Counted from the first letter of the stretch, positions 24,900 through 51,857 are shown. The stretch is DNA of 64,000 bases from Ptychodera flava (GCF_041260155.1 NC_091937.1:6640626-6704625), one strand, 5' to 3'. The notes: generated from the sequence alone by a model not told the origin. Made by a program: numbers and translations.

Positions 24900-25037
24900 T
24901 GACAGTGAAATCAAAGTGGAGAACATTTATGCTGTCCATCGTCCAGCGGAAGAAAAAGTGTTGGCCAGAAAGCTAGGATATTCCAAATACATGTTCCATG
25001 CATCAAAACCAACAAATTTTGTTGGAATTTTATCAAG
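24900..25037 (+). CDS. PARP4: PARP4-like exon 8 (PARP catalytic start): SDSEIKVENIYAVHRPAEEKVLARKLGYSKYMFHASKPTNFVGILS(R)
   Basis: Acceptor tctatatttttcaacAG and donor AG|GTAGGA. Human: FRVGRVNETTEFLSKLGNVRPLLHGSPVQNIVGILCRG, the catalytic H-G-S region. Confidence 0.85.
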
Positions 25038-25186
25038 GTAGGAATATTTTTCCAAAGTTGTCAAACATTGCTTTAAAAAAATGCAGCCATTGTGTGATGG
25101 CTTAGAAAGTAATAGCCAATTGGTTGTTTTTAAGATAAAGTGTGGAAGACAAATTTACTAAATGCTGAAATCTTATTTTCCTGCAG

Positions 25187-25285
25187 AGGATTGCTCCTAC
25201 CAAAAGTGGTTGTTGATGACTTTGGTGGAAAACGAACTGATCCCGGAAAGTTGGGACATGGCATATACTTTGCTGATTCATCAAG
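25187..25285 (+). CDS. PARP4: PARP4-like exon 9 (catalytic): (R)GLLLPKVVVDDFGGKRTDPGKLGHGIYFADSS
   Basis: Acceptor tcttattttcctgcAG and donor AG|GTACAA. Human: GLLLPKVVEDRGVQRTDVGNLGSGIYFSDS. Confidence 0.9.
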
Positions 25286-26166
25286 GTACAAAAATATCGG
25301 ATGAAAAAAGAGAAGGCTTTTTTGATGAAGTATATCAGCAATAAACCGCACCCAGTGATGGTATACAATGTGATTTTGACCAGTTCATGACATAGCAAGT
25401 GCATACATGGTATGTCATGAAATGGTCAAAACCAAGTGCTATACTGTCGCTGAGTGTGGTTTATTGCTATTATATCATAACAGTACTATATTGAAATTCT
25501 GGCATGGAACATCAAAGAAGGATTTTGCTCTTGCTGAGAACTCACATGTGCCAACCATGCTTTATCGGGAACATAGCGTGGTTATTTTCACATCTCGACC
25601 ATACAGGTTGCTGTGTTTGTGCCATCAATATATTGATATGATATAATTGATGATATAGGTTTAAATTTAAATTTACGTTTTACATCTGAACAAAACTGTT
25701 AGAGAGATCACATTTTCCATCAATAGTTAAAAATCTAAGATGTAAACTTACAGTAGGATTACAATATGATTTGACGGGACACCAGGCAATCCTACAACCC
25801 TATTGAAGGAATGTGGATAGGGAAATTTTAAAGTTATAAATATCTGTGTTGATGTTCAACATCTTACGATAACTGCTACCTATTATGTACTTACTGACCA
25901 GGGCTTCATTTTCTTGTTGCTCCTGTGCAACTCATACAAAATAATGCAACAAAAATAGATAATATAGATACAATAAGCAATATGATGCCACTACAGGGAT
26001 CTATTGCTTAATTGCCACTCACACCCTTTTTAATTTTCTCTGCAAAGGCTAAAATTATAACTCATAAACTTGAATGGTAAACAGTCAAGTTCATTGCAGA
26101 CCAGTACCTTGGACTATTTTTGAATTATTATGATTTTAATCTCATCAAGAAGTCTCTGCATTTCAG

Positions 26167-26350
26167 TACAAGTGCTAAGTACAGTTTTGTCAGTGAGGTC
26201 AGGGGAACCCGCTTTATGCTGGTCAGTAGAGTTGAACTGGGGCAATGTAAAGATCTGTACAAATCCGATGCAGACATGATAGCTCCTCCCAATGGATACA
26301 ACAGTGTGCACGGCGTCAAGGGAACAGACCAACAACCATCAGATTTCAAG
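26167..26350 (+). CDS. PARP4: PARP4-like exon 10 (catalytic): STSAKYSFVSEVRGTRFMLVSRVELGQCKDLYKSDADMIAPPNGYNSVHGVKGTDQQPSDFK
   Basis: Acceptor tctctgcatttcAG and donor AAG|GTAAGA. Human: LSTSIKYSHPGETDGTRLLLICDVALGKCMDLHEKDFSLTEAPPGYDSVHGVSQTASVTTDFE. Confidence 0.9.
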
Positions 26351-26372
26351 GTAAGAGTGGAAATATCCATTT

Positions 26373-27061
26373 TTAGCTCATATTTGGTTTTGTATATAAA
26401 TACCAAAAAGAGCTTATATGATGAGTCGGTGGCGTCTGTATGTCTGTATATTTGTCGGTATGTATATACGGATGTATGTCCGTCACACACAAAGGCTCCC
26501 ATACCGCCAAAGCTACCATCTCAGTATTTGGTGTAGAGGTAGATGCAGGGGTTGAGATGTGAATTTGTTCAAATGAACACATCAGTGTCAAAAATGTGCA
26601 AATGAGGTAAGAAAAAGTGAAATCCTGCAAATGTGCAGGAGTGATGGCATGCCAGTAAGAAACAGGCCAACTCCACTGATCTTGAGTCATTTCCTGTCAT
26701 TGTTTATGAACTGTTACATATTAACAGACCTGCTGAAACCATAGACAGTAGAGGGGGGGGGGAAGACCGTCTATACTCAAACTAAGAGGGGCTTGTTTCT
26801 GCTATGCATGTTGCTAAAGTTGACCTCCAGTACCTAAAGTTTCAGACCTTAATTACTTTTGTCATTCTTGTTTTTCTGGTTTAAATATTTCTTGTTGTTT
26901 TTCTGGTTGTACTGTGCAGAAATCATTGTCATAACATCAACGTAGAATTTTCCTCCACTGAACATATAGAAACAACATTTATTGTTGATCTTTGGTACCC
27001 ACACTGGTATGTACCAATTCTGATCAAATTTGAGCAACACCATATAATTGCGGTATTTTTA
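26373..27061. mobile_element. family B copy, beginning 23 bp downstream of the PARP4 exon 10 donor
   Basis: Near-identical to 14815-15500, including ...cctccagtacctaaagtttcagaccttaattacttttgtcattcttgtttttctggtttaaatatttcttg.... Confidence 0.7.
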
Positions 27062-28743
27062 GGATACTGTACTTGATTAGCGCACATATCAGTTATTTGC
27101 TGCTAGTCACTTCATCTTGTTCATGATAAAATTATTCACTGAGTTATGGGGGCTGATTCTGAATAATGTTGGAGTTCACCACTAGTATGCAAAGTTTCAA
27201 ACTTTTTGGAAGACTTTTGCACTAACCTCTTTCATACAATAATGATAATACTACTATCTTGTCATCACCAATGTAATATTGAAAAGTATGAATGTTGGTC
27301 CACACAAATGTAAGTTTTTATATTCATCCACCATACATTTAAAATTTGAAGTTTAAACTTTTGCTAGTACATTTTGCATGGAAACTTTAACCTGTTCTCC
27401 CCCTATGTAAACATATTCCTCTCTCTCCATGTCAATGGGTTTAGGCCAAACCATGGTGGTGAAAGAGTTGAATGAGATATATCTTTTTTGTAAATCATGC
27501 CTGGAAATAAAAAAAGTTAGCATGTCAACATTAGACAAGTACTAAAATATTTCAAATTACTAATATTGCTATATGCAAAAAGACCACTTATCTTTTGGGA
27601 TAACTGTCTGAGGTCAATGTGACTATCTGTATTTCTTAAAAACAAAATGATGTGCATCCATTGTCTGTTCCATTTTGAACAAATTCCCCACAGTTTGCAT
27701 GTGACAAAAAAGACAGACTGTCATTTTTGAAGTGATTTAACCAAGATATACATTCCACTTTCATGTTTAATTCATCAAAAATTGACAATTCACTATCTCT
27801 GTCTACTGTCGTTGAACAGTAGTGTCTACTGTCGTTGAACAGTAATAGGGCCTGGAAAAGTGTCTAGACCATGGTTATTATGTACATAACTGATTTGAAT
27901 CAGTTTTATGGTTCAGGTACTGCTTTATAAATGTCTAATGTTCATTATGCAATTCCCAGGGATGTCAATTTGTGGATAGGGAAATGTTCAATAGGCATAA
28001 TCTTTACAATTCAGATAATTTGTCTTGATACCCTGTAACTGTGTGTTGTTATACACCTGTGTCTGTAACCTTTAGAGTTTCATCGTAGAGTAAGTTTCAG
28101 TATCAGAGGACACTGAATCCAATAACTTTGACATGGAATACAAGAACTTGAGATTGTTGGACTCTATGTGACTTTTGACCTCACAGTAACTTTACATCAA
28201 CAGGGGAAAAAGAAGAGAAGATTTTACTTTTTTTTTATAAAAAACATACCGGTACTACTTAACATTCAGTACTTAATGCATAATGGTCAGTCCAAAACCT
28301 GTGAATTTGAGTGAAATTATGATGTTGAACTACAATTTCTACGACATGCACTGTGCTGTGCCAGTTGAAGTTTCATTTAGTGCTTTTACTCTAGCAGACA
28401 TGATAAAGGCACTCGCAGTCTGCTCATGATCACACGATGGGAATCCTTGAAATACCATAATTTGGGCTTTTTATGGTAAAATTGGAGTGAAAAGGTGTAT
28501 AATAATAATGTTATTCATAAAATAGCATGATTTGTCTCCTTGTACATTGTATGGTAATGTTATCAGACATAAATCCCAGTATTTTGTGAAATGCCTTGTT
28601 ATGTCACGTAGCTTTTTACAGAACATGCATGGCTTCTTCTGAGAGACTACTAAGTGTTCTTAATCAGAGTCTAAAGTATCCCATTCATATATCAAGATTT
28701 ATCTGTTGAAAACTGAATCCTTTATCTACTGCTTGTGTTTCAG

Positions 28744-28951
28744 GATGATGAGTATGTAGTGTATAACACAAACCAGCAGATGATGCGATATTTAGTTGAA
28801 TTTACAGTTCCTGGTGATGTCATCAAATCAGTGCCTTCTGCAGTGACACAACAAAGTAGAACCAGTGAGACTACTTCTTCAGATGATGAATCTGATTCTG
28901 AAAGTAGCATTGATGATTCTACTTCAGATGTCAGTGATGATTCTGGAATTG
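28744..28951 (+). CDS. PARP4: PARP4-like exon 11 (catalytic C-terminal end plus acidic Ser/Asp-rich linker): DDEYVVYNTNQQMMRYLVEFTVPGDVIKSVPSAVTQQSRTSETTSSDDESDSESSIDDSTSDVSDDSGI
   Basis: Acceptor tctactgcttgtgtttcAG and donor G|GTAAGA. Human: DDEFVVYKTNQVKMKYIIKFSMPGDQIK. Confidence 0.85.
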
Positions 28952-30880: not shown

Positions 30881-31138
30881 GAGTGATAGTATATCTCAAT
30901 TATAAAAAGTTCTCAAAAATTTATGGAAAAGTTGTGGCCCTTTGACATTGAAGAAACCCTGTAGACAACGTAATTATACTGAGTTATTATCAAACATGAA
31001 TATAAAATTTGTAAAAGGTTTTCAATCTATAAAGGGTGAGGTATTCGTATATGTGAAGAAACAACACAAAGTCTGTTTTGCTCTAAGAATTGGCTGTGAA
31101 TGTTATTTTATTCTGACAAATCTCTTTATGTCTGTCAG

Positions 31139-31269
31139 ACTTGAATGATGTCATGAATGTGACTGACCCTATGTCAAAGGTTAAACCTGGCTTGATTTCA
31201 ACAAGTGACACACCGGTACCCTTGAAGTCTGTTCATGTGAGGGCTAAACTGATGGATCTGGTTGCACAG
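31139..31269 (+). CDS. PARP4: PARP4-like exon 12: DLNDVMNVTDPMSKVKPGLISTSDTPVPLKSVHVRAKLMDLVAQ
   Basis: Acceptor tctctttatgtctgtcAG and donor CAG|GTAAGT. Human: LQDASGNLVPLEDVHIKGRIIDTVAQ, the start of the VIT domain. Confidence 0.8.
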
Positions 31270-32169
31270 GTAAGTTTTTTACAATGGAACAATTCAACTG
31301 AGGATTATTATAATGGATTTACTGTGAGCAAAGTTAGTCAGGTCAGACATCTTCAAGTATGTTGCAGGGCTAGGATCACTTTACATCATTGTTACTGGTC
31401 TTTGAGACCACAAAATACTGAACGGATTTGCAAATCTTTGGCATGTACTGATGGCTCCATCTACCACACAACAATTTCCAAATGTTTACAGAATCAGTTC
31501 AGCTCACTTTAATAAGAGATTAAATATCCATATATGGATAATGAAAATCTCTCAAACTACAAGAAGTGGAAATGATGATTCTAGATTATAATCGATGATG
31601 GGTGTGAAAGGGTGTAGAAGGCTTTGACATTATCAGCTGGTAAACTGTTCCAAGTGTTGTTCATATGTGGACTAAATGAAAACCTTTTCTAGTCAGCCGA
31701 GACAAAGGCTTGAACACCAATTTCAAGGCATATACTCAGGTTATTGCTTTCTTCATCTGAAATGAAAGGCTAAATAGGTCGATAATGATACAGGTATCAT
31801 TACTGAAAAATGGTGGAATTGTAAGGCATATATACTTTGAACATATTTTTGTATTTAACAATTTTGTCAAAGTTGTCTAAGTTGTTAGACACAAATTTCT
31901 GTCAGACTCAATTTTAGCTGCATATTGCAATTCAACAAGCAGACAGCTGAAACTCTGAGTTGCACCAATAAAGACAGGTGCAAGACAGAAAAATGTCTCT
32001 GTTGTTTACATGATTTTTGTTTTTGCAATAATTTTTTATTGAAAAAAGACCAAAGAATTTAACAACGAGGTTATAGAAAAAAATATAATATATCTCTACA
32101 TGATGATTTAATAAATAACTTTTCTTCTTACATATCAACATTAAAAATTTTCGTCCCCTTCCTTCGCAG

Positions 32170-32388
32170 GTCATCGTTATGCAAGCATACTTCAATGAAA
32201 GTAAGGACCCAATAGAGGCAAAATATGTCTTTCCGTTGGATACTATGGCAGCAGTGTGCGGCTTTGAAGCATTCATAAACGGCAAACATATCATTGGTCA
32301 AGTCAAAGAAAAGGAAACAGCACACAAAGAATACAAGGAAGCCATAAGTAAAGGGCATGGAGCATACCTCATGGATGAAGAAACTCCA
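32170..32388 (+). CDS. PARP4: PARP4-like exon 13 (VIT domain): VIVMQAYFNESKDPIEAKYVFPLDTMAAVCGFEAFINGKHIIGQVKEKETAHKEYKEAISKGHGAYLMDEETP
   Basis: Acceptor tcgtccccttccttcgcAG and donor CCA|GTAAGT. It is near-identical to human VIVFQTYTNKSHVPIEAKYIFPLDDKAAVCGFEAFINGKHIVGEIKEKEEAQQEYLEAVTQGHGAYLM. Confidence 0.9.
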
Positions 32389-32807
32389 GTAAGTTAGGGC
32401 GTCTGAATACTCTGCTTGTCTTTAATAGGGTGTCTGAAACTCTGCTTGCCTTTACTCTTGACAGATAGCTTGTATCTTCATTTATGCTACGTTAAAATGT
32501 AGCTGTGTGTCTCATAGTTTATGTGTCAGTGTGCCTGTCTGTCAGCATTAACACTTTCTAGCGCTTTGTACAAAATCTGTATATCTTTCATTCGCTCTCT
32601 CTTTCCTCTTCAGTCTCTCTGTCTCTGTGCTTTTCTCTTTGTGAAAAGTCATCCATTGTAAGTCTTTCTTCCTTTACCAAGTGGGCAGAACCACAAGAAA
32701 AATATTATTACATGATTGAGTTGATGTCCAATGGATAGACATTTAAGAAATTACATAATATGACCTATCAGAGTATGTAATGTAATATTATATGTATCAT
32801 TAAGGTA

Positions 32808-33155
32808 GTATTACCTCAAAAGTGAAAGACTTAAACTTTTGCCCAAACTTTACTCAAGAAACTTTCAACCATTCTCTTAAGCAATCAAGAACAAAAATAA
32901 CGAGTCCCTCTGCAAAGTTTGGAACTAGGAAACAAATTATCCAACAATTAGTAATACCGGTATCTGCAACTCAAAATGGCTGCCATCCCTGCATAAACTC
33001 TATGGGGCATGAACATTTTTGATTTCAAGAAAATTATGACAGTGAAAATTTTCTTACAGCTTTAAAGTGAACCACCACAAGTGATAGATTAGAATAGGAT
33101 TGAAAAACCTTCAGACTCTCAATCTGTCCCAGACGCATGCATTCAACCTTAATTA
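32808..33155 (+). mobile_element. SINE-like family copy (plus), ending about 45 bp upstream of the exon 14 acceptor
   Basis: Head agtgaaagacttaaacttttgcccaaactttactcaa, core caaaatggctgccatccctgcataaactctatggg. Confidence 0.7.
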
Positions 33156-33199
33156 TTCGGCTGACTACAATTTTGTTCATTTTCATCCTCTGCAACTAG

Positions 33200-33405
33200 G
33201 ATGTTTTCACAGTGAGTGTTGGAAACCTACCACCAATGGCAACGGTCCTGATCAAGATTACATATGTTACAGAACTCAGTGTGGATGGAGATAACATCTT
33301 GTTTCAGCTGCCAGGAAGTGTTGCTCCCTGGAAAAAAGACTCAGCACTTTCTCAAGAAACTCAGACAGATGTGAAAACTGTGAAGGTAGAGAAGGAAGGA
33401 CAAGG
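33200..33405 (+). CDS. PARP4: PARP4-like exon 14 (VIT): DVFTVSVGNLPPMATVLIKITYVTELSVDGDNILFQLPGSVAPWKKDSALSQETQTDVKTVKVEKEGQ(gg)
   Basis: Acceptor tttcatcctctgcaactAG and donor GG|GTAAGA. Human: DVFTVSVGNLPPKAKVLIKITYITELSILGTVGVFFMPATVAPWQQDKALNENLQD. Confidence 0.9.
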
Positions 33406-35999: not shown

Positions 36000-36861
36000 G
36001 TAAAATGTTGTATTGAAGAGGAAATCAATTTAGAATTGGATGAAATGGCTGGATCATGTACTTGCATTGTATAGATATCAGCAGAATGAGCCATTGCTAT
36101 CAAATGAAGATACAGCTTTATTGTCTTCTATGGCAAAGCTGGACCACTTGAAATGCAATGGGGGGGGGGGGGATGAAAGCAATCTTACTTTCGTCACACT
36201 GAAAGTAGTTTTCATACTGTCAAATTTTGGTAAAATTACAATTTTTTTTGCAAAAGTCCTTTGAGTAGGAGAGGGATACATACTGTATATTAACCTATCT
36301 ATGAAGGGTTATCAGTTTTCTTAGCTTGACCAGTTGATTGGCAAATATGTACTAGTTATGTATTGCACAGTAGTGAGAGTATGATAAAGAATTGGTTGAA
36401 CATCAACCAAACAAGTGGTAGTCACATTGGACTGACTTTGATGCTTGTCTTGGGGAGACAACAAATTATAAGCATTTGCTGTATCCCTGTGATCATGTTC
36501 AAATCGTGCACAGGTAGTTAGGCCGTCTTTTTACATGCCATATCTAGTACATGTATACATGCAGCAATGGGGACATAGGATAGCAGAGAGTCCATATTTA
36601 TGTTTAGATAATTATGTACATGTATTTGTACCGTTATCTGTGTGTGTTTGTCCATTTCGTGCTGAGTTAGTATTCAGTGATTGTAGTGGGTATGTGTCAC
36701 TTTGCTGAATAATCACCCACTTACAGTATTTTGTATCTCAGTGTCTTCCCATGGTATATTCACTCATTACCACTTAAAGGCGGAGCTTACATTTTACTTG
36801 TCAAGATATGTCATAAATAACACTAACATTGTACCATTGGTTGTATTATTTTCCAACACAG

Positions 36862-37048
36862 GCGTGTATGTTGACATTCTACGCTGAGTTTGAAGCAGAC
36901 AGCATAAATGGTTATGAGGTGGTCTTTTTCTTGGATTTGTCAAATTCAATGCAAGGAAATTCACTCACAATGGCAAAGAAGATACTTATGTTGTCGTTGC
37001 ATCACCTACCGGAATGCTGTACCTTTAATATTGTAATCTTTGGCTCAA
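36862..37048 (+). CDS. PARP4: PARP4-like exon 17 (vWA domain start, MIDAS-like DxSxS): ACMLTFYAEFEADSINGYEVVFFLDLSNSMQGNSLTMAKKILMLSLHHLPECCTFNIVIFGS
   Basis: Acceptor ttgtattattttccaacacAG and donor A|GTAAGT. Human: ACMLVFQPDLDVDL...EVIICLDCSSSMEGVTFLQAKQIALHALSLVGEKQKVNIIQFGT. Confidence 0.9.
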
Positions 37049-37390
37049 GTAAGTTGTTGCAGCTTGGCTTATAAACTTTTCTGCTCTCAACAAAGCAGGT
37101 TTTATCAAAAAAAGTTACTCTCTGCTGCTGTTACGGTCTTTAGTCTTTAAATTTCTCTCCACAATACATTTCATAATATGAGATGCCAGTGGTGAGACAG
37201 TACAAGCTTGCCTTACTGAGGATATTTGCATGAAGGCATGCTGTGTATTCTGTGGTGTGTTGGCACCTGGAGTGATCACGAAGAAACGAAATACAGGAGT
37301 AAAGCTTTCAGAAATGTGATATTTTGTATTATTAAAAAGTACATTAAGCGTTGAAATCTTCCCGGCCGAAAGATGTTTCTTTTTTTAAGG

Positions 37391-37741
37391 TGTATGCACC
37401 TCGAAAGTGAAAGACTTAAACTTTTGCTCTAACTTTCCTCAAGGAATCTTTTAATCATTCTCTTTCAAAATCAAGAATAAAAATAGGGGGTCACCGTGCA
37501 AATTTTGGTACTAGAGAAACAAATAACCCAAGATTTACCGATATTAGAAATTCAAAATGGCCACCATCCCTGTGTTAACTCTATGGAGAAAAATAAAATT
37601 TTCGAATTTCGAAAAAGTAAGCCGGTGAAAAGTTTTCTTTCACCAAGAGCTTTAAAATGAACCCCATATGTGGTATATCAGAAGAGCATTGTAAAAGTTT
37701 GAGAGTCCGAACGTCTGTCCCCGAGGTGCGTTCTACCTTAA
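37391..37741 (+). mobile_element. SINE-like family copy (plus)
   Basis: Full-length copy: cacctcgaaagtgaaagacttaaac ... gccaccatccctgtgttaactctatgg ... gtgcgttctacctta. Confidence 0.75.
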
Positions 37742-38000
37742 GTATAATAATAATAGCTTGCATACCGTCATTTTCGTTTTGCTTATAAGATACTTGTTGT
37801 TTACAAACAAAAGTAGTTTGGGGCACAAGAGCTCATTAACATAAGATTATTGTATAATGTTTTCTGTATTGCACTGCAGTGCAAATACCAATTGTACGTG
37901 CACTATTAAAAAGTACAGTGAGCGTTGAAATCTTGCAGACCGAAAGATGTCTCTTTCTTTAAGTAGTATAATAATAGCTTGCATACCGTCATTTTTGTTA

Positions 38001-39290
38001 GCTACTATAGACTATAGTCTATAGAAGCTATGGGATGGGTACCGTCCGGCGTCCGTCGTCAGTCTGTATGTATGTATGTATGTATGTATGTATGTATGTA
38101 TGTCCGTTTGTGAGGCGTCCGTCCACTCAAATATCTTGAGAACCGCAGTACTTACTGATTTGATATTTGTTGTGTAGATGAAAAATACGATTTTGAAACT
38201 ATTTTTTTTAACTTTTTGATATTGTTGAAAATAGGCAAATTAATGCCAAAAAAGGTGTTTTTGGTAAAAAATCTTCTTCTTCATAACCGCTGGTCAGACA
38301 GCTTTGTTATTGGTATACAGGTCCCTAGGGGTAACCCAACTTAGACTTGTTCAAATTGTGATGAAATATGCAAATCTGTATTTTTAAGGAATTTTTTGTC
38401 ATTTTTGGTCAAAATTTGACTTACATTGTATGTAATTCTTGTACTGTATAAACCCTATCAATTCACCCAGAAAAAAATAATTAATATGATTTTAAATAAT
38501 TGAATTAATTAGGAAATCATCAAAGGCAAAATAATTTTAGTGTAGAATTATCAGAAAGTTCAACTTTTTGACGTTTGACAGTTCATAGTGAAATGCTTAC
38601 CATCTTAGAGGATTAAAACATGTAAAGGCAACTTTCCTGAATCCCAACTTTGACATATTCTGAACCGTCATTTATTGTGCCCTGTATGTTATCTCAAAGA
38701 AATTGCTCAAAATAGTCAATAGAGATAGAGATAGAGAAAGTTCTAATTTCCATTTATGGTTGACTTGGTAAGGATAAAATAAAATTACTTTTTGAGGAAA
38801 AAAATAGAGTGGTCAATTAAAAGAGTGGTCAAAGTGATAGGGTTTTTATGGTAAAGCTGGGCTGTACAAAGATTCCTCATGTGCTATTTATAGCAATTAT
38901 GCAATCTGTGTAAACAGTGCAATGAAAGTGTAACATGATTCCTTATAATGCTTTTGATGACCTTGAACTTCTTAAGTTTCAAACCTTTGTCTCTTCAGTG
39001 TGCTTTCTCTGAGTATGTACAGTCTCAACTTATTAAACAGAACTTACAATGTTAATCAAAGATATCCACCTTCTTCATCAATACATGTGTCACAAAAGGT
39101 TATTCTCTACATAACTCAACAGAGCTCTGTCAACTGTTGAGTTGCTTGTTCTTTCAAAACCGCTGGTCAGACAGCTTTAATATTTATTTACTTGTCCGTA
39201 GGATGACCTTAGTGAGATAATTTCATACAGTAAGGAAATACTTAATTTTGTATCCATGTCTATAGTAGCTTCAGGGACTTTGGCCCTATT
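38001..39290. mobile_element. family A copy in PARP4 intron 17: head, (TGTA)n at 38065-38101, tandem units, about 650 bp of unrelated internal sequence, then the conserved tail at 39050-39140
   Basis: ccgtccggcgtccgtcgtcagtc(tgta)n ... ggtaaaaaatcttcttcttcataaccgctggtcagacagctttgttattggtatacagg ... tail aaagatatccaccttcttcatcaatacatgtgtcacaaaaggttattctctacataactcaacagagctc. Confidence 0.55.
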
Positions 39291-40092
39291 CGTTTTTCTT
39301 GTAAGATACTTTTTGTTTACAATGAAATGTAGTCTGGGTCACAAGAGCTCATTAACATAAGATTATTGTATAATGTTTTCTGTATTACACTGCAGTGCAA
39401 ATACCAATTGTACATGCACTCCAATGCAAGTAAACTGTGGTAATACACATATTTTCACCAACCAACAAAATCTTAAACATTCCACCCAGAAATGATATTA
39501 TGAACATGCATTTCCTATACTTTAAACAGAAAACCAACAAGAACCAACTTTTCATTCTCAAAAAAGTCATGAATGTAGATAGAACTACTAATAGAGTAAT
39601 TATTAAACATTTTGTTGATATTCTTTCGGCAAATGAAATATAACCAGTAATGAGTATAATGTGAAGTCTCAAACATTTTTCATATGTTGGCTAGAGCGTG
39701 ATGAATATCTTCAGGAAGCATGTTTTTTACTGTACAATGTTACAGTTATTAGGGTACTGATACCTACACAGCAGAAGTAATTTGTCTGGTGTATTTGACT
39801 ACCGAAATGATGAAAAATCTGTGAGCTAAAAATTTACTGCTTTCAAGTCATTTGTCCAAATTTCCTCATGCAGAGATAGTCCCTTGCCACCGCAGATCGA
39901 CAATTGAGTTGTTCTAAAATTTGCCAGGAAAGTCAAGTATGTCTCTATCAGCACTCATTTACTCAAATTGTATGTAGATGAACATTAGACATAGTAGACG
40001 TAAGCTCAAGGTGGAGAAAGTTTACTTTTCCCCCTGTAGTAATGGTACTTTTAAATTCATTATCTCATTCCTTGCAAATTGCCTTTCTACAG

Positions 40093-40360
40093 CATTTGAT
40101 GAACTGTTCCCAGACAGCGTTCCAAAAACCAAGGAGAACGCTAGGAAAGCCCAGCAGTTTGTCCGGTCGGCTCGCATCCGAGCCAACATGGGCAACACAG
40201 ACGTTTGGCGACCCCTTCTGTTATTTCTTCAGTTCAGCCCTTCTACCGGCCAACGCAATGTGTTCCTGATTTCTGATGGGCATATCAACAATGAGAAAAT
40301 GACACTGGATAAAATTCATCAGAACAATCAACATACCAGAGTCTTTACCCTTGGTGTCAG
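40093..40360 (+). CDS. PARP4: PARP4-like exon 18 (vWA): TFDELFPDSVPKTKENARKAQQFVRSARIRANMGNTDVWRPLLLFLQFSPSTGQRNVFLISDGHINNEKMTLDKIHQNNQHTRVFTLGV
   Basis: Acceptor tcattccttgcaaattgcctttctacAG and donor AG|GTAAAA. Human: GYKELFSYPKHITSNTMAAEFIMSATPTMGNTDFWKTLRYLSLLYPARGSRNILLVSDGHLQDESLTLQLVKRSRPHTRLFACGIG. Confidence 0.9.
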
Positions 40361-40744
40361 GTAAAACACTTGCTCCCATCAATTTATTTTTTATCTTGTT
40401 TATTTGATTCTGTCGTTTTGGAATATCCCGTGCCATTTGTCCACTTGTGACTCATGTATTGCGAGAGTACTGTACTGATACTGCTGTAGACTAGCTTGCC
40501 CTCACGTTGCATTTAGACTATACTATATGCTTTTAATTCTACCCCACACTGCCTGTAGTCTACCCTAACATTGCCTTTTGAGGTACATCTCAATATCTCA
40601 TGTACTGCAGAATTCTACAAGCAAAAGTGAATTCATTCAAATTGATGACCATCCCCTGACCCTGAGACTTGGTATTGACATCAATTTCCAAAGAATTCAT
40701 TCATGTGATGATTTGTGATATATTGTTTGAAGTTCCTCATTAAG

Positions 40745-41073
40745 GTAAAATGTAAAAATTTGCTCTAATTTCCCTAAATGAAACTTTCAACCATATTCTT
40801 ACCAATCAAGAATAAAATCAGGAGTCACTATGTAAAGTTTGGTAGTAGAGGGTGAACCAACAACCTGACATTTACCAATATTTGAAATTCAAAATGGCTG
40901 CCATTCCTAGCTGTGTTAACCTTATGAGGAAAAATAAAATCTTTGATTTAAAAAAAAACTGCAATAGCGAAATTTTTCTTACTGTAAGAGCTTTAAAAGA
41001 AACACCCACAAGAGGTAGATCACAAAATTGTAAAAATTTGAGTCTGATATCTGTCCCCAAGGCTCGTTGAAAG
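40745..41073 (+). mobile_element. SINE-like family copy (plus)
   Basis: aaaatggctgccattcctagctgtgttaaccttatgagg ... ctgtccccaaggctcgtt. Confidence 0.7.
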
Positions 41074-41182
41074 ACTGATCATTACAAAGCCAACATTTTA
41101 TTAAATTAAATGTAAGCAGTGTATAGGGCTTTCAGATTGTAAACAATTGACAAACAATATCTTCTCTTTTAATTTTTCACAG

Positions 41183-41282
41183 CTCAACTGCAAACCGTCA
41201 TCTGCTGCAGTCCATGGCCAGGGTTGGAGCTGGTGCCTATGAATACTTTGATAATCAGACAAAATCAAAGTGGGAGAGAAAA
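41183..41282 (+). CDS. PARP4: PARP4-like exon 19 (vWA end): (S)STANRHLLQSMARVGAGAYEYFDNQTKSKWERK
   Basis: Acceptor ttctcttttaatttttcacAG and donor AAA|GTAAGA. Human: STANRHVLRILSQCGAGVFEYFNAKSKHSWRKQ. Confidence 0.9.
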
Positions 41283-41900
41283 GTAAGACACTGTTCTCCT
41301 CTGGAACATTTAGTGACCCTGAAACTTCACACACCTAGTCTCTTGTAGACAATCTAGACTTCACAGTCCCTTGTCAAACCTTCCAACACTTTATTTACTG
41401 TCAATGAACTTCAGATGCCCAAGTATCTTCACAAACTCTTAAGCATCAGTCTGTCTTTGAACTTATAGATATCTTTGTCTTTCCTAAAAATTTGAAGACA
41501 CCCCTATTCTATGTTCGTCAGGGTATCTTGTCATATTTTGAGAGACTTATCTTTTCAGAACTCTCAAACACATTGTCCTTGAGAAGTATACAAATAGAAG
41601 GTTGTTGATTCCATGATCGGACATAAATGTATCACTTGAGCTTTGTCATTCCTAAATATAGGAAGAAAACAATTTTTGAATCATAAGCTATGATTTATTA
41701 ATGGCACAGTACCTGGTTATTTTATGTACCTGGAGAAATTATGGTGAATTTAAATTTTCCGATCAAAATTCCAATCAAACCTGAAATGTTTTCATAATTG
41801 AGACTTGATTATAAAGGCCTACCTCTGTCAGAGAAAAACATGAGATAATACAGTAATTCCAGTAATGTTAAACATTTCTATCTGTGATGTTTTACTTCAG

Positions 41901-42071
41901 GTGAAATCCCAACTCCAGAAAGCAGCGCAACCTGCTTTGACATCTGTCAGTGTTGCCTGGCAACAGTTTGATAATGATGCCCCCAAGCCAATTCAGGCAC
42001 CCAATCAAATTGTCTCATTGTTCAGTGGGTCAAGGCAGGTGGTCTATGGTTTTGTACCATTCTGTACACAG
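41901..42071 (+). CDS. PARP4: PARP4-like exon 20: VKSQLQKAAQPALTSVSVAWQQFDNDAPKPIQAPNQIVSLFSGSRQVVYGFVPFCTQ
   Basis: Acceptor tctgtgatgttttacttcAG and donor CAG|GTAAAA. Human: IEDQMTRLCSPSCHSVSVKWQQLNPDVPEALQAPAQVPSLFLNDRLLVYGFIPHCTQ. Confidence 0.9.
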
Positions 42072-42790
42072 GTAAAACATCTTTATGCAAATCATGTTTA
42101 ATTTTTATCTGCTAATTTAAAAAGATAAGTTTATTCTGCTTAATTCAACAGTGAAGCATTCATTGGGCTTGGAATACTGTCAATATTATATCTTACCAGA
42201 AATCAGATTTGTAATTTTCCACCACCATATCAACAGACTTCAGGGCAATATTTTTTAATGCCTACAGTGTTCTTGTAGATATCAATGTTGGTGACTACCC
42301 CCAGGTTTTACAGTGCCAGCCATTTGAATTGCATGTAGAAATGAACAAACATGTCATTGTCATATTGTTTTCTTGAAATTTTCACAGACTTGATACAAAG
42401 AGCTATTCTTGGAAATCTATTTAAAAGTAGAGTGAACATGCTAGACTGTAAGATAAAATTCTTTACAAATTCACGCAAATAAATCTGTAAGTTTTTCTTT
42501 TACAACCTTTTGATTTTGATTGTATCTAATATTTGATGTACGTGTACCCATTCACTGGTGGTTGTTGAATTGTGAAAATCTGTTTGCTTTCTTCATTTAC
42601 AGGAATATTTTGTGAGCCATAACTATTCATTAAAATTCTTTAATAACAACTGGGGTCAGACGATCACTTATTGAAATATATCATCAACATGATTTGTCTG
42701 TTGCTAAATTACTGTAATTTCTCATTATATACCTCAGCTCATGGGTTGGTCATGTGGTTTCTCTGATGTGTAAACTTTCTGATATTTCAG

Positions 42791-42871
42791 GCCACACTGA
42801 AAGCAGAGATTGACCATAAAGACGTTTCTACAATGGTGTCTACAGCTGATCTTAACATCACCCAAGGAAAG
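42791..42871 (+). CDS. PARP4: PARP4-like exon 21: ATLKAEIDHKDVSTMVSTADLNITQGK
   Basis: Acceptor ctttctgatatttcAG and donor AAG|GTAATG. Human: ATLCALIQEKEFRTMVSTTELQKTTG. Confidence 0.85.
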
Positions 42872-43154
42872 GTAATGATGAAATGAAAAATGTTTATTGA
42901 CTGTTTCATTCAAAAGTAATAAATGTGTTTTATTGCTGATTGATAAGAAAAGGTGTTCTATTTTGATAGTGTACATGTCAACCAAAATTGGGAGAGTAAT
43001 TAAAAAGCAAAGTTGTTACTATTTTTGAATTATTTTCCAGTTTGTCATTGTCTTAGCTGACCCTAAAAGTTTTTAAAAACAACTTCATGCTGTACATGAA
43101 TGTTTCTCTGTACCATTAGTTTACCATGTTCTTGTAACTTGGTCTTTACCCAAG

Positions 43155-43337
43155 ATCCTTCACCAACTGACAGCACGCGCCATTATCAGAGACTGGGAAG
43201 ATGGGACATTAAATGTGAACAGAACTGAGCATGAGGTGATGAAAAGTGAGCAGAAGGCATACATCATCAATATCAGCAAAGAATATTCCATTGTGACACA
43301 GTTTACAAGCTTTGTTGCCATAGAAACTAGAGAGCCG
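43155..43337 (+). CDS. PARP4: PARP4-like exon 22: ILHQLTARAIIRDWEDGTLNVNRTEHEVMKSEQKAYIINISKEYSIVTQFTSFVAIETREP
   Basis: Acceptor cttggtctttacccaAG and donor CCG|GTGAGT. Human: MIHKLAARALIRDYEDGILHENETSHEMKKQTLKSLIIKLSKENSLITQFTSFVAVEKRDE. Confidence 0.9.
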
Positions 43338-43814
43338 GTGAGTATGCTAGAAGTCTCTCTCCCCTTTTCTTTTTATCAGCCATGATAAGTTACTTTTCAA
43401 AAAGAGAAATTTGTGTAAGAAAAGGAAATAAAAATGCCACCTTTTAATAGCTTGTACAACTCTCAAGGACATAAAATTGTAAATTTTGCAGAGAACATAA
43501 TTTCACAAGCATCTCCCTTTTAATGAAAAACTTTTTAAACATTATGTCGTGTTTTAAGTAATAGAAACCAATAACTGTATGCAGTAATTTCTCTAAATTG
43601 TGAATTATGCACACTACGAGCTTATATGGATGAGTATCCTATACTTTCTAGTGGTATTCAAGTACTGTAGGTGTTTATTATTATTTCAAGTTTATGAATC
43701 ATTCAAGAAATCTTCAGTCTGTGAAACACAGTACATTGTATTTGGTACAGTCGGTGCTTGCTGCAGTTTGACAAGTTAAATGATAATTCTGAAAAATTAT
43801 GTTAAATTTCTCAG

Positions 43815-43931
43815 GCTGAAAAGTTACTGGGGCCATGGGGTCCCAGCATAGAAGAACTGGTTTCAAAGGAGAATGTAGACAGTCTGCCATATATGGGATT
43901 TGAAGAGAAAGTCAGAAAAGAAAAAGTGGAG
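43815..43931 (+). CDS. PARP4: PARP4-like exon 23: AEKLLGPWGPSIEELVSKENVDSLPYMGFEEKVRKEKVE
   Basis: Acceptor atgttaaatttctcAG and donor GAG|GTAAGA. Human: ...IPKVSELIAKEDVDFLPYMSWQGEPQEAV. This is the last exon with clear PARP4 homology. Confidence 0.75.
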
Positions 43932-44377: not shown

Positions 44378-44389
44378 GTTAGGGTTTTA

Positions 44390-46718: not shown

Positions 46719-46868
46719 TTGAGTGGTGAAGAACTACTCAAGGACTTACTGGAGAAAGCAGAAACAAACCAACGTCTGTCCATCATTCTGCAAGCAGAGA
46801 GAGGCTATCAAGAAGCATATGATGTGGCTGTGAAAGACTTGCCGACAACTCATCCACTCAGACTCAAA
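46719..46868 (+). CDS. exon with a 14-3-3-like segment, in phase (0) with exon 23: LSGEELLKDLLEKAETNQRLSIILQAERGYQEAYDVAVKDLPTTHPLRLK
   Basis: Acceptor ttctttctctgtttgaatgtgaatAG, with an in-frame stop immediately upstream in the intron. Donor AAA|GTAAGC. AYDVAVKDLPTTHPLRL matches the 14-3-3 helix AY(K/Q)(A/E)A..I...(L/M)(P/Q)PTHPIRLG. Confidence 0.5.
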
Positions 46869-47303
46869 GTAAGCATTCTGTTCCCATCTTTCTGCTGTGT
46901 TTCCTCAGATCCAGTATTGTCTATTGCATTTCTTTTGAGACTGGTCCATTTCATTTCTGAATGGGGTAGAACCGACCTTCGTAAGGCTGCAGCACTGGTA
47001 TCAAAGACTTGCCATCCAAATGTAAGAGACACAAAATATGCCAGTAACAGTGTACATGGGGTATTTTGGTGGAGATCAGATTTACTTTACGTTTCATTTG
47101 GTGTACTTGACTCATAAATAAGAATGGAAAGTTATTCTATATCATTTTACAATCAAATAAGCACAACTCATATAATGTCACTAATATTTTTGTCAAAAAT
47201 GATGCTCAAGTTATCTCCTCTACGATCTTATTAGCTCCATGATTTTCTACTTTCCTTCATCAAGTTTTGTTACTGTTTTTGATATCCATCCTTTTACTTT
47301 CAG

Positions 47304-47388
47304 GCTGCCTGTTCACTTGCCAAGTTTTGTTTGGATGTTCAAGGCGACAAAGACAAAGCAGAATCCATCGCAAAACAGGCTTTTGACG
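47304..47388 (+). CDS. 14-3-3-like segment continued: AACSLAKFCLDVQGDKDKAESIAKQAFD(g)
   Basis: Acceptor catccttttactttcAG and donor G|GTAAGC. ACSLAK is an exact match to the 14-3-3 helix EKACSLAKTAFDEAIAEL. The preceding LALNFSVFYYEILNSPE helix is missing. Confidence 0.5.
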
Positions 47389-48052
47389 GTAAGCACTTGA
47401 TGACATACATTTAATTTTTCACCGAAAAACATTATTTTTCACACATTTCTTTGTAAAGGGATAAAGTGACAATCACTTCATTCTATTTGTCATTGCATTC
47501 GAGGCCAGCTAATGGACATTTTGTAACATATTCAAAGAGTGGTCAAAACTATACCTTCAACTCTTTATAAAGTCAGAACTCATTTTGAAATGGCATAATT
47601 TCTGATAAAATGAATATGCAATTAAGCTATCGCTGACTTTGACCTGTTCATCCCTGGTTCCTTGTAAACAGGTCTGTGCTCTCTATTGATAACAGTGGGT
47701 TTGGACCAAACCATGGTGGTGAAAGGGTTAATGGTGTAAAATCATGAGCTGACAGTGCAGTCCCTTTTATGCAACAGTCATACCACCCTGATACATCAAC
47801 ATTGTTTGAACTCACAGTTAATTAAAAAGTAATTATTAAAGATTATCTCAGCATGTGAATATCGTGAAACACTTGGATATTGCCCCGTCTGTTTATGTCT
47901 GTTTATCCTTCGTGAAAATGGTACTACATACTGTGTTTTACTTTTACTACAATATGTATGTTGCTAATAACCTTCATGTGTTGAAAAGAGAATAAAAAAT
48001 GTTGATTCGAATTTTATGATGGAGTTTACATGGTTGAAAGTTTACTTTACAG

Positions 48053-48128
48053 ACAGCATATCTGAGTTGGATACATTGAGTGAAGATAGTTATAAGGATT
48101 CAACTCTGTACATGCAAGAACTGAGAGA
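48053..48128 (+). CDS. 14-3-3-like segment continued: (D)[24 protein letters not shown](ga)
   Basis: Acceptor gtttactttacAG and donor GA|GTAAGT. Phase 1 in and phase 2 out. It matches the 14-3-3 C-terminal helix [26 protein letters not shown] at 17 of 24 residues. Confidence 0.55.
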
Positions 48129-48989
48129 GTAAGTCTTTGAAATTATCTTTATTTGTACAAAATATTTGTTTGAAAATATGATTATGGAATATGTTCATGA
48201 ATCAACATATATGGCTTTTATTCCTAATACAAGTGTATTCATTGACAGTCCAGTTGCAGGCAGAGATGTGTATGGTCAGGTTAATTTGTTTGGCAGTCCA
48301 TTCGTTGTATTGTGTATGTATGTGTGTCCTTCCGTATTGAGTCAATACCAACATATGCCAAGACCAACGTCTGTTGAACCGAGTATGAGGAGAGTGCATT
48401 GAGATGCTCACTTAAATGTAATATTGTTCTGCCATTGTATTCAATATGGTATGCCAGGCACCCATTTTGTTGTGATTTATTTCCTTCACATAGTTATGAA
48501 CAAGATATGCCACATATGGCTAGATATGTTCCCTTGAATGTTGAAAGAAAAAGCACACAATGTTACTCTTAATAGTGTATCTGTTTGTGAACTTGTTTTG
48601 CAATACAATCCAAAGTGGTCACTTGTAACCTATGTCCTTGACTTTCTCACTGATACCTCCTATACTAAATCACATTTTTATGTCAACAACATCACTTTTT
48701 AGTGTCCCTGGACTGTGTCCCTGAGGACTTATATAGGTTTGATCATGTCCGTGTGTGGGGGCGTGCTCGCGTGCGTGAGTGCGTCCATTCACGCAGATAT
48801 CTCAGAGATGCCTGGAGCGATTTCATTCACACTCTATTCCAAGATTACTCCCTATGTCATACATGTGCACGTTGATTTGTTTTGTGATCCGATCCAATAT
48901 GGCCGTGTGATGGCCATTTTATTTAAAAAGTGGAGACTATGTCATTGACAATGACTTTTTAAAAAGAGCTCTGTTTCTGGAGCGTGTGA

Positions 48990-49890
48990 TTGCACTAAAC
49001 TTAATAAAACTTTGAGCTCTAAAAGCACACAATGAGGCATGTCAGTATTGCATCAATTAATTGCTAATTTGCACATTTGATGAACTTTTGTAATGAGGGT
49101 GACATGTCCAAAATACTACAGCAAATTTGATGAAACTTGGTAAAGATCTTTAACACACAGTCTCATAATAGTGTACAAAGACATGTAGCAGTGACATGCT
49201 AATTTGCATGTTTGACGAACTTTCCTAATTTGTAAGCTATGTCCAGAAACATTGCATCAAATTTGATGATACTTGGTACAGATGTTGATCTTTCAGTACT
49301 GTAATACTATGTAAAGACATTAAGCAGTATCATGCTAAATGATTGCTAATTTGCATTTTTGGTGAACTTTTATAATTAGTGTGATTTGTATAGAAATGCT
49401 GCATCAAATTTGATGAAAAGTGCTACAGATGTTGATCTCCAGGAGTGTTATGGCATGTAAAGATATGCAGTAGTATCATGTCAATTAATTGCTGATTTGC
49501 ATGTTTAATGAATTTTCGTAATTAGGCTCATATGTCAAGAAATGGTTCATCAAATTTTATGAAACTTGATACAGATGTTAAGCTCACATTGCTTTAACAG
49601 TGAATAAAGACATTCAGCAGTGTCATGTTGATTAATTTGTAATTTTCATATTAGATGAACTTTCCTAATTAGAGTGATATGTCCAGAAATACTGAATCAA
49701 ATTTGATGAACTTGGTACAGATGTTGATCTCAGTACTGTAATACCATTCATTGACACTTAGCGGTATCGTTTATAAAATGTGGTACAGGTGATAATCTTT
49801 CAGTGTTATAGTAGAATGCAAAAATGTTTGGCAACATGCTGTCGATTAATTATTGACTTATTTAATGACCTTTCGTAATTAAGTTGGCAG
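48990..49890. repeat. ~145-bp tandem repeat (about 6 units) in the intron between the 48053 and 50601 exons
   Basis: Recurring ...catcaaatttgatgaaacttggtacagatgttgatct...gcagt.tcatg.t.attaattgctaatttgcat.tttgatgaactttcctaatt.... Confidence 0.7.
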
Positions 49891-50600
49891 CCCATATTGG
49901 TTTAACGTTTTGACCACTATAGAACTTACTCTTAATCACAGACCCAGTTAATGAACAGGACTGTATCCTCTCAAAGAACTTGTAAATCAAAGTACCCATT
50001 AACAAGTGGGGACTGTGTCATCAACAATGACTTGTTATCCCTTTTGTAATCTGTTACTTCATTTTGTGATAATTAACAGAACACAGAAATTTGCTTTTAA
50101 CATAAAAAAACAACCTAAAAATCATCATTATGATTGCAGTTATTGTTTGGATTTTTGTAAGCTTCCAAGGCATCACTGTCATTTTCAGTCCCCATGGATG
50201 AAGTCCAAGGGATTAACAGTTTTGGTCATGTCTGTCCATTTATGCAAGCTGTTTTTGAAGATGCCTGGACCCATTCCTTTCAACAGATCTACATGCATCT
50301 AATTTATAGGTCATGATACATCTTGTGTGGATACCAGGCTGCTGTTTTGTTATGATTACATCTCATGTCCATAGCATTAAAGAGGTATCTGAAATGATTC
50401 CATTGAAACTTTGTAGGAGGACATTGTATAATGGTGATATGGACATCAATTTGTGTTGCTAGAATAATTTCACTAAATGCATGCAAAAAACATTGAAAAT
50501 CAAAACAGGGATTAAGAGCTCCTAAGAAAAATTTGATCCATGTAGACTACGTCAATCAATGATGATTTGTGCATTTCTATTTCATGTATTTTGTTTCCAG

Positions 50601-50695
50601 TCTCTTTGAGAGAAGAGAAGATTTAGAAATATCGTCTTTCTATCAGAGTTATGGAACTATCAGTAGTGATAAGTACTATGGCTATGATGACTATG
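50601..50695 (+). CDS. exon: (D)LFERREDLEISSFYQSYGTISSDKYYGYDDY(g)
   Basis: Acceptor tgtattttgtttccAG and donor G|GTAAGT. Phase 2 in and phase 1 out bridge the previous and last exons exactly. LREDLFER follows the 14-3-3 LRDNLTLW register. Confidence 0.45.
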
Positions 50696-51570
50696 GTAAG
50701 TTTAGTGAATGACTTCCATGCAATTCAATGTGAAGTTATCTAATATTGATAATATCATCTAATTATAAGAGTGCAGGGGAATGGAGCATGGGTTGATGTG
50801 AAAGAGAACTTTTTTGCGGCCTCTAAAATGTTCAAAAGTGTACTCCCCTACTTTTATCACTTTGGGCACAAATTATCAATTATTGGTGTTCAGTGAAAAT
50901 CGAAGGCAGATGTGAATCTGCAGATCGTATTGTCACAAATAAATCTTATAAGCGTGTGTTCATGACTTATGACTTTCAAATTCAATTGAGTTCCTATAAA
51001 TATACATAATCAACAATGTTATTACAGGCATAGCATGTGCATATTTGAAAAAGCTTGAACAAGACAATATGGCTGCCACAACTCTGTAAAAATAACCAGA
51101 AATGGTGGACATAAAGAAGGAGAATCTTGTCAGAGTCACGGAGACATGATGAGATCCGTTGAAACACATGGCAACAGATATTCTCTACAGTGATATTCTA
51201 TTCTCTCTTTCCCTTGCAATATAACAAGTTTTGAAAAAAATTGCAGCAATAAAATGAACATATGCATATTTTATTAATGAGCATTGTTTCAGTATTGAAA
51301 TTGTATGGTAATGATACATGAAGTGATTATTGATAATTAAGTGTGTATAATGATGGTAACAATGCAGATAATTCACGTACCTGGCATGTTGCATGGTATA
51401 AAAATGGAGTGAAAATCATTACAAGTAATTGCCAATTCTGTCAAAAGTGAATGTTGTCACGATGCAGGTAAGGGATGTGTCATTTTGGAATTCAGAGAAA
51501 GTTGAGGAAATTTTGATTTGAATTAATCATTGTGTAGCTCATAGGTCTTTAAACTTTGTGTATGATGCAG

Positions 51571-51857
51571 ATTATGAAGATGAGGTATATGGCATGCTCT
51601 TCATGGACAATGGCTCATTTATGACTGATGTTGGATTTGCTGGCTCTCCACAGCCTAAGGCAACCTTTCCAACAGTTGTTGGCCGTCCCCGTCACCAAGG
51701 TGTCATGGTTGGTATGGGTCAGAAAGACAGCTATGTGGGATTTGAAGCAGTTGGTGGGAAACCAAAGCGTTTCCTGACAGAGGAAAAGTCCGTCTTAGCT
51801 CTAATAAGACGTAAAGCAGGTGAATGCAACGTTGTCAATGGTTCTACTCTGGAATAA
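51571..51857 (+). CDS. terminal exon with an actin-derived segment: (D)[94 protein letters not shown]
   Basis: Acceptor tttgtgtatgatgcAG. [20 protein letters not shown] is 20/20 identical to actin residues 37-56. DNGS, GFAG and FP..VGRP match the actin N-terminus [29 protein letters not shown]. The sequence diverges after codon about 60. Stop TAA at 51855-51857. Confidence 0.55.

Follow-up and report, generated by a model that had tools for sequence, protein, structure and literature searches.

What lies behind the vault PARP outside the vertebrates? In the 64,000-nucleotide window of Ptychodera flava DNA analysed here (GCF_041260155.1, NC_091937.1:6640626-6704625), a gene resembling PARP4, the vault PARP, is followed on the same strand by five candidate exons (exons A to E, positions 46719 to 51857) that encode parts of a 14-3-3 protein and of an actin. 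Do these exons belong to PARP4 or to a gene of their own, and is the combination new? The initial annotation allowed for both answers to the first question and regarded either outcome as novel, as an unreported domain architecture for a vault PARP or as a stand-alone chimeric 14-3-3/actin gene. Our analysis leads to a different view. The five exons are very probably the next exons of PARP4, coding for the same polypeptide, and the resulting architecture is a published one that vertebrates lack and many other lineages possess, the window gene being an ordinary orthologue.

The tail exons read in phase with PARP4

The five segments lie on the plus strand where the initial annotation had placed them, each preceded by a pyrimidine-rich acceptor ending in AG and the first four each followed by a GTAAG donor. 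Joined, they form a single frame of 693 nt (230 codons) that closes with TAA at 51855-51857 and keeps phase with exon 23 of the PARP4-like body, which ends in phase 0 just as exon A begins in phase 0. Exon A has no methionine and is abutted by an in-frame TAG (46716-46718) that overlaps the acceptor AG, the first methionine of the joined tail frame being residue 99. An upstream coding exon ending in phase 0 is therefore needed, and exon 23 fits. Exon C joined straight to exon E runs into an early stop (worked by hand from the sequence), so that an exon of the same phase as exon D must lie between them. The 14-3-3 motif LRD is restored across the junction of exons C and D, and in composition exon D is like the linker that precedes the actin piece of Mytilus and Nematostella. 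Introns in the tail region measure 0.4-2.8 kb.

Comparison with other organisms points the same way. Specifically, a 2.5-kb metagenome contig (L003; JGI Ga0499340_165762) carries a vWA piece, the post-vWA region, the 14-3-3 half and the actin fragment on one strand. Its counterparts of exons 23, A and B form one uninterrupted frame (...GPSIEELVAKEDIDILPYMGW...AEISPEQRIRDALEEG...LQAERSFRHAYECAQENLPATHPLRLQASLGLASFLQDV...AKTAFDG), 44-73% identical to the window over this region and without an intron where the window has the 2.8-kb intron between exons 23 and A; the counterpart of exon C and the actin fragment follow on the same strand. Continuous open reading frames also lead from the post-vWA region into the 14-3-3 half in the entries P0132, P0140 and P0124, and from the post-vWA region into the actin fragment in P0125. 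The PARP4 of Branchiostoma lanceolatum (CAH1248284.1) aligns with the protein assembled from the window exons in a single stretch, 60.8% identical over 867 residues, that runs from the catalytic domain to inside the 14-3-3 half. PARP4 entries of cnidarians and bivalves that contain the actin fragment further indicate that the tail is part of the PARP4 protein. The assignment to one polypeptide thus draws on the continuity of phase, the TAG and missing methionine at exon A, the frame of L003 and the single amphioxus alignment, and the comparison with related PARP4 proteins, which the initial annotation had named as a check, supports the joining.

A 14-3-3 half without dimer interface or phosphate site

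A scan of the 230-residue tail with Pfam profiles gave a 14-3-3 match (PF00244) of E=4.1e-22 and 79.3 bits (cut-off 33.2) over profile positions 124-217 of 223, as well as the Actin match described below. Profile searches thus agree with the two homologies read from the sequence in the initial annotation, whose quoted peptides are all present. In tblastn searches of the window with a 14-3-3 zeta and a beta-actin sequence, matches were confined to the tail exons.

Which part of 14-3-3 is it? Alignment to canonical 14-3-3 assigns ~90 of ~230 residues to the piece, and in the animal PARP4 tails roughly the final four helices are represented; nothing aligns to the first four of the nine that make up the complete fold. 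Compared with 14-3-3 proteins (PF00244), the likeness resides in the last two helices, which are 55-70% identical to the canonical sequence and, in most orthologues, very similar to it, whereas the window lacks the dimer interface and the phosphate-binding residues. Among the latter, K49 and R56 are without equivalent, and at the positions of R127, Y128 and N173 the window has K, D and S, respectively (numbering of the zeta sequence, cross-checked against P0149). These three residues are replaced in most orthologues too, and the positions are not conserved among the orthologues.

A structural model is consistent with this picture. AlphaFold2 was applied to the orthologue P0140, with a 30-sequence alignment, and the model reached a mean predicted local distance difference test (pLDDT) score of 71, rising to 86-95 where the 14-3-3 half is modelled best, a part that shows four helices. 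Foldseek aligns these helices with solved 14-3-3 structures (~90 residues, 55-60% identity, root-mean-square deviation ~3.5 Å). As read from its sequence, the piece is half a 14-3-3 without dimer interface and without phosphate site, and since both the dimerisation helices and the phosphate-binding residues are missing, it would be unable to act as a classical phosphopeptide clamp.

An actin fragment under purifying selection

Exon E corresponds to actin residues ~5-56, 67% identical to beta-actin, with the DNase-I-binding loop (D-loop) unchanged. In the tail alone it matches Pfam Actin (PF00022) with E=3.2e-7 and 29.7 bits (cut-off 27) over profile positions 7-54 of 410; on the whole assembled protein the score is 26.6 bits, just below that cut-off. 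No other actin-like exon was found by tblastn in the 64-kb window. Only ~50 of the 375 actin residues are present, and the full four-subdomain fold with its ATP site is not: by comparison with actin, subdomains 3 and 4, the remainder of subdomain 1 and the greater part of the nucleotide-binding fold are missing. What is left comprises the first beta-strands and the D-loop, and a fragment of this extent predictably cannot fold as actin or polymerise.

Such a fragment might be taken for a recent retrocopy of actin or a pseudo-exon, and the pattern of substitution speaks against this. Over 53 codons compared between the window and three orthologues, the proportion of synonymous differences (pS) is 0.64-0.80, at or near saturation, and that of non-synonymous differences (pN) is 0.21-0.27. 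A 21-residue core ending in (S/A)YVG is constant save for one Ser/Ala exchange, despite many silent changes; the actin fragment is under strong purifying selection. The window, Mytilus and the Logan contig L001 also share changes that are derived with respect to actin, namely YVGFEA for YVGDEA and FPT/S.VGRP for FPSIVGRP. Saturated silent sites together with derived changes common to the orthologues rule out a recent retrocopy or pseudo-exon, and they indicate common descent and long-term constraint rather than recent capture of actin. Despite this saturation of silent sites, cnidarians and bilaterians have kept the same D-loop core.

Three JGI contigs (3300046521; L006, L007 and L008) share one open reading frame from the post-vWA region into the actin fragment and differ in their downstream parts. 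All three keep a short stop-containing insert right after the actin residues ...GRPRH, at codon 41, a common actin intron position, and have the appearance of transcript isoforms in which an intron was retained.

The gene probably continues past exon E

The initial annotation let exon E run to the stop codon at 51857 and implied that the tail stands in place of the MVP-interaction tail of PARP4. The actin-coding part of this exon is upheld by the results above; its end at the stop is doubtful. In every full-length orthologue that has the actin piece, ~190-800 residues follow it, and in the Nematostella, Hydra, Mytilus edulis and Magallana gigas entries the actin fragment is internal, with ~240-800 residues behind it, in contrast to exon E, which is open to a stop in the window. 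The actin exons of Mytilus coruscus (contig L004) and of L001 stop at a phase-1 GT donor, 4-5 codons past YVGFEA. The window has three phase-1 GT donors before the TAA, at 51753/51754, 51810/51811 and 51819/51820 (the last reading cag/GTGAAT). Exon E probably ends earlier, at the donor at 51753, 51810 or 51819, with the gene continuing past 51857.

Does the tail replace the vault-binding domain, MVP-ID? A profile of this domain, built without the sequences under test, recognised it at the C-terminus of four proteins: isoform X1 of Nematostella (E=1e-30), the PARP4 of Hydra (2e-13), that of Branchiostoma belcheri (2e-36) and the product of contig L005 (2.5e-15). The actin fragment and MVP-ID occur together in the first two, and the 14-3-3 piece and MVP-ID in the last two. 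The 14-3-3 and actin pieces thus coexist with the vault-binding domain in orthologues and do not replace it, so that a replacement, as implied by the initial annotation, is not established.

L005 (JGI 3300030520, Ga0311372_10096207; positions 1-5410) is a GC-rich (54%) eukaryotic contig that encodes, in order, VIT, vWA, the 14-3-3 half, a stretch rich in acidic residues and proline and, at the C-terminus, a homologue of MVP-ID, the last matching vertebrate MVP-ID also by blastp (E=9e-11).

Conversely, the fusion may be correct and exon E terminal, in which case PARP4 would end at 51857 without MVP-ID and would not be a vault component. The frame is indeed open to the TAA, and MVP-ID (PF26156) was found in the window, including the 12 kb that remain past exon E, neither by tblastn with snake, sardine and L005 queries nor by a six-frame search with a profile of 31 sequences. 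Shorter Nematostella isoforms are annotated as well (X2-X5, 1764-1827 aa), and the MVP-ID profile gave no score for any of the four tested. These findings would fit a terminal exon E, and a vault association of the window PARP4 is accordingly no more than putative. We nevertheless consider a terminal exon E unlikely in view of the long continuation of the orthologues beyond the actin piece, the phase-1 donors that close the actin exon in M. coruscus and L001, and the candidate donors of the same phase before the stop in the window, that at 51819/51820 included. In orthologues MVP-ID lies ~460-800 residues after the actin piece, and the window leaves 12 kb for it. Searching with tblastn for exons beyond exon E, using the tails of Mytilus, Magallana, Nematostella, Hydra and Macrostomum, returned none, a result of little weight because these tails are of low complexity and change rapidly.

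Distribution of the tail pieces in other organisms

A profile of the post-vWA region and the 14-3-3 half (P0132, P0140 and P0124) was searched against 1.84 billion representative proteins and gave 99 matches below 1e-30, the long ones being sorted into four groups by local blastp with domain probes. In the first group (~10 clusters), PARP, VIT and vWA are followed by 14-3-3 homology, and the 14-3-3 match is near full-length in Cavenderia fasciculata (P0241) and in three unnamed matches. The second group (five clusters) continues with actin residues ~3-72. The third continues with a ubiquitin-like domain; this and a separate search gave it four named members, the gastropods Bulinus truncatus, Plakobranchus ocellatus and Biomphalaria glabrata and the unionid bivalve Sinanodonta woodiana. 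The fourth continues with MVP-ID, its named members being Branchiostoma belcheri and the unionid bivalve Potamilus streckersoni; vertebrate examples of MVP-ID came from a separate search.

Carriers of the 14-3-3 piece include B. lanceolatum (CAH1248284.1), B. belcheri (KAI8502339.1) and C. fasciculata (XP_004366641.1). The actin fragment is carried by Nematostella vectensis (XP_032219397.2 and XP_048577466.1), Hydra vulgaris (XP_065649889.1), Mytilus edulis (CAG2205451.1), Magallana gigas (K1PUC2) and Macrostomum lignano. In the Nematostella, Hydra, M. edulis and M. gigas entries it spans actin residues ~4-72, lies behind the post-vWA region and has an identical core. Nematostella repeats the order of the window: first comes a 14-3-3-like stretch, which is degenerate, then an acidic linker that closes with EDDVYGM where the window has EDEVYGM, and last the actin fragment. 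The gastropod proteins have the same body as the window gene and carry their added domain at the same post-vWA position, with the difference that this domain is ubiquitin-like and not actin-derived. The three gastropod proteins and that of Sinanodonta (P0130, P0242, P0246 and P0264) have the ubiquitin-like domain where the window has 14-3-3 and actin, with a Pfam ubiquitin match of 3.4e-10 in Bulinus.

Mytilus coruscus (L004, CACVKT020004061.1) and M. galloprovincialis are represented by small entries (P0003, 186 aa, and P0007, 134 aa) that consist of PARP4 linker and actin only and are labelled 'unnamed protein product' or 'actin, partial'. They are probably fragmentary PARP4 gene models, because M. 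edulis CAG2205451.1 joins the same actin piece to a full PARP4 body. Within the 3.2 kb upstream of the actin exon in the M. coruscus contig L004 there are no 14-3-3 exons.

A published architecture that is absent from vertebrates

PARP4-like proteins with VIT, vWA and an appended 14-3-3 were described in 2014 (Perina et al., DNA Repair 23:4, section 3.1.2, PMC4245714) in four amoebae, Branchiostoma floridae, Strongylocentrotus purpuratus and Capsaspora. According to the same work, some PARP4-like proteins have a further C-terminal domain such as actin, and actin or actin-binding domains occur on those of Salpingoeca, Capsaspora and Acanthamoeba (PMC4245714). It was the sole match in a full-text literature search for PARP4 and '14-3-3 domain'. 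The window gene follows the order given there (PARP catalytic, VIT, vWA, 14-3-3, actin): its 14-3-3 homology comes after VIT and vWA and its actin homology downstream of 14-3-3, as is also the case in L003 and Nematostella. The claim of an unreported architecture, novel in either case, does not therefore hold, the more so as database entries already contain such proteins. The 2014 description differs from ours in that it names only Pfam and SMART domains, does not state that the animal 14-3-3 piece is a half or that the actin extends over ~50-70 residues, and includes no lophotrochozoan among its examples.

Vertebrate PARP4 shares with the window gene the succession of BRCT, catalytic domain (ART), VIT and vWA, and its helical or regulatory region, ahead of the catalytic domain, has a putative counterpart there. 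Unlike the window gene, it continues after the post-vWA region with acidic disordered repeats and then the helical domain MVP-ID, and in the two vertebrate examples read by eye neither 14-3-3 nor actin homology was evident. The AlphaFold-based map of human PARP4 lists BRCT, WGR, HD, ART, an inter-alpha-trypsin-like region, disorder and MVP-ID, and its text makes no mention of 14-3-3 (Suskiewicz et al. 2023, PMC10450202).

The PARP4-like body and its surroundings

The domain exons of the body were placed by tblastn with partial PARP4-like database proteins, and the whole-gene Pfam scan took as its input a rough, incomplete exon assembly of the window protein (Table 1).

Table 1 Exons and domain-coding segments of the window gene, with positions counted from the first nucleotide of the window
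Feature	Position	Strand	Evidence and remarks
BRCT-encoding PARP4-like exons	13152..14460	+	approximate span, start taken from the initial annotation
ADP-ribosyltransferase catalytic exons	24796..28818	+	Pfam PARP, tblastn, motifs
VIT exons	31138..33400	+	tblastn with P0133 and P0139; Pfam VIT 9.7e-38
vWA exons	36856..41288	+	tblastn; Pfam VWA_3 7.9e-20
Post-vWA exons, conserved ...ILHQLTARAIIRDW...TQFTSFVAIE...	41898..43340	+	tblastn with L003, P0122 and P0123, 59-73% identity
Exon 23 (AEKLLGPWGPSIEELVSKENVDSLPYMGFEEKVRKEKVE)	43815..43931	+	phase-0 end at GTAAGA donor; aligns to L003 1047-1154
Exon A, start of the 14-3-3-like half to ...THPLRLK	46719..46868	+	splice sites, Pfam, tblastn; 44% identity to L003 1176-1322
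Exon B, 14-3-3-like middle helices (AACSLAKFCLDVQGDKDKAESIAKQAFD)	47304..47388	+	L003 1323-1406, contiguous with the exon A counterpart; 14-3-3 alignment
Exon C, last 14-3-3-like helices	48053..48128	+	tblastn with 14-3-3 zeta, 70%, E=2e-7; L003 1474-1548, 68%
Exon D, acidic Tyr-rich linker, least supported exon	50601..50695	+	need for the frame, composition
Exon E, EDEVYGM motif and actin N-terminal fragment	51571..51857	+	Pfam Actin; tblastn with ACTB, 67%, E=4e-19

On this assembly Pfam found BRCT, PARP catalytic, VIT and VWA_3 and then 14-3-3 and Actin, in that order, in keeping with the PARP4-like upstream gene of the initial annotation. The N-terminal BRCT domain is present (BRCT_2 4.2e-10, 40.2 bits against a cut-off of 27.3; BRCT 2.6e-7), and the BRCT region of the window includes stop-free segments at 13074-13316 and 14200-14460. 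The PARP catalytic domain is present over nearly the whole profile (1.7e-31, positions 3-198 of 199), with tblastn matches at 26165-26350 and 28738-28818 that place catalytic exons at ~26.2-28.8 kb. FHASK, GIYFAD and DDEYVVY occur in the translations of these exons; by eye, and with PARP1 as the reference, we take them to be the H-Y-E positions, which suggests an intact H-Y-E set. PARP_reg, the helical regulatory domain, scored 25.2 bits against a cut-off of 26.8 on the rough and incomplete assembly. Amphioxus, crinoid, unionid, limpet and oyster proteins resemble the body to much the same degree (56-61%), and the highest identity in all searches was ~73%. An exact look-up of the 99-aa open reading frame over exon E gave no record. 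Taken together, the window gene is in all likelihood an orthologue of PARP4 (vault PARP, clade 5).

Repeats are found in several introns and downstream of the tail. The intron between exons 23 and A contains a ~230-bp element at 44148-44378 with perfect 17-nt terminal inverted repeats (CTTAACCCTTTGAGTGC / GCACTCAAAGGGTTAAG), which resembles a miniature transposon; a pair of perfect 34-nt direct copies at 45232-45304 (CACGTGCACCGCACTTTGCCGATACTATACTGAA) whose starts are 39 nt apart; and a second repeat pair of ~80 nt each at 45749-45829 and 45911-45988. The 2.5-kb intron between exons C and D holds a tandem array at 49062-49747, with ~4-5 copies of a 136-147-nt unit at 74% match. Two PARP4 introns, at ~14.8-15.6 kb and 26.4-27.1 kb, share a repeat with near-identical translations (IPKRAYMMS...HTQRLPYRQSY...; IFLVVFLVVLCRNHCHNINVEF...IVDLWYP.WYVPILIKFE), probably a dispersed repeat or transposon fragment. 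Downstream of the tail, tandem arrays at 53250-53635 and 61034-62313 appear as repetitive open reading frames (CESKYLSPKCILPLAL repeated; SKMSNVYVILGS.H.SKS.MPIVQTYRVSCKPNVYGPNV repeated). Elsewhere in the window, TA-type dinucleotide runs occur around 18.4-18.6 kb and 63.5 kb. An Rfam scan of the whole window gave no match.

Weighing the joined reading

Several observations count against a tail that is expressed as part of PARP4 and retains its two pieces. The tail junctions are all inferred from sequence and comparison, and for exon D a direct homology match was not found. The final 14-3-3 helix of the window (LYMQELRDLFERRE) is degenerate. The mussel and oyster PARP4 entries gave no 14-3-3 match by blastp. 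Because of the degenerate last helix and the missing blastp matches in mussel and oyster, the 14-3-3 piece may be decaying in the window lineage. A WH2 match in the tail of L005 reaches 13.4 bits (E=0.063), where the cut-off is 23.1, and is too weak to be relied on.

Some of these observations could be read more radically, the tail exons being relics that are open by chance and are skipped or bypassed in the PARP4 mRNA of the window species. The degenerate helix, the mussel and oyster entries and the loss of both pieces in vertebrates would fit such a reading, yet it would leave to chance five consecutive open exons with intact AG and GT boundaries and compatible phases, Pfam scores above the curated cut-offs and an actin core that is intact and under strong purifying selection; we regard it as very improbable. 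A stand-alone chimeric gene, with its own promoter and first exon in the 2.8 kb from 43932 to 46718, is very unlikely: the small separate Mytilus entries with linker and actin only could be cited for it, and an internal promoter giving a short isoform is conceivable, but the TAG closes exon A with no methionine before residue 99, L003 is intronless at the exon 23/A junction, M. edulis CAG2205451.1 joins the actin piece to a full PARP4 body, and the spacing from ...LPYMGF to LSGEE (10 residues as against 14 in L003) leaves no room for a missing exon.

Possible roles of the 14-3-3 and actin pieces

With the tail exons read as part of PARP4, the window gene has a layout that is common in the non-vertebrate protein: behind the vWA and post-vWA region, a degenerate C-terminal 14-3-3 half of ~90 residues is followed by a short actin fragment (residues ~3-72), then by a long disordered stretch and, in at least some species, by MVP-ID at the end. 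We infer that the 14-3-3 half and the actin piece would be non-catalytic interaction modules steering where the enzyme acts or what it modifies. In F-actin, the D-loop of one subunit sits in the barbed-face cleft of the next. Because the D-loop sequence is kept exactly, our guess is that the actin piece might dock on actin or on D-loop-binding proteins and so link PARP4 to the actin cytoskeleton. This guess, to us the most likely as to its role, draws on sequence conservation and the general structure of actin.

A more specific and rather doubtful extension of this idea is that the actin piece mimics the pointed-face surface, docking into the barbed-face cleft or on D-loop binders or serving as a decoy for actin-targeting factors of pathogens, and that the 14-3-3 half, the actin piece and MVP-ID together represent the ancestral animal layout, from which vertebrates would have lost both tail pieces. 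If the mimicry were real, it would tie PARP4 or the vault physically to actin; if the layout were ancestral, work on mammals may have missed an original function of the vault enzyme.

The constancy of the D-loop core and the role of the two pieces are of modest interest, and this at the level of the family rather than of the locus. Vertebrates, the source of nearly all work on PARP4 and vaults, lack both pieces. Binding of actin by the tail, if real, could inform the long-unclear cellular role of the vault PARP.

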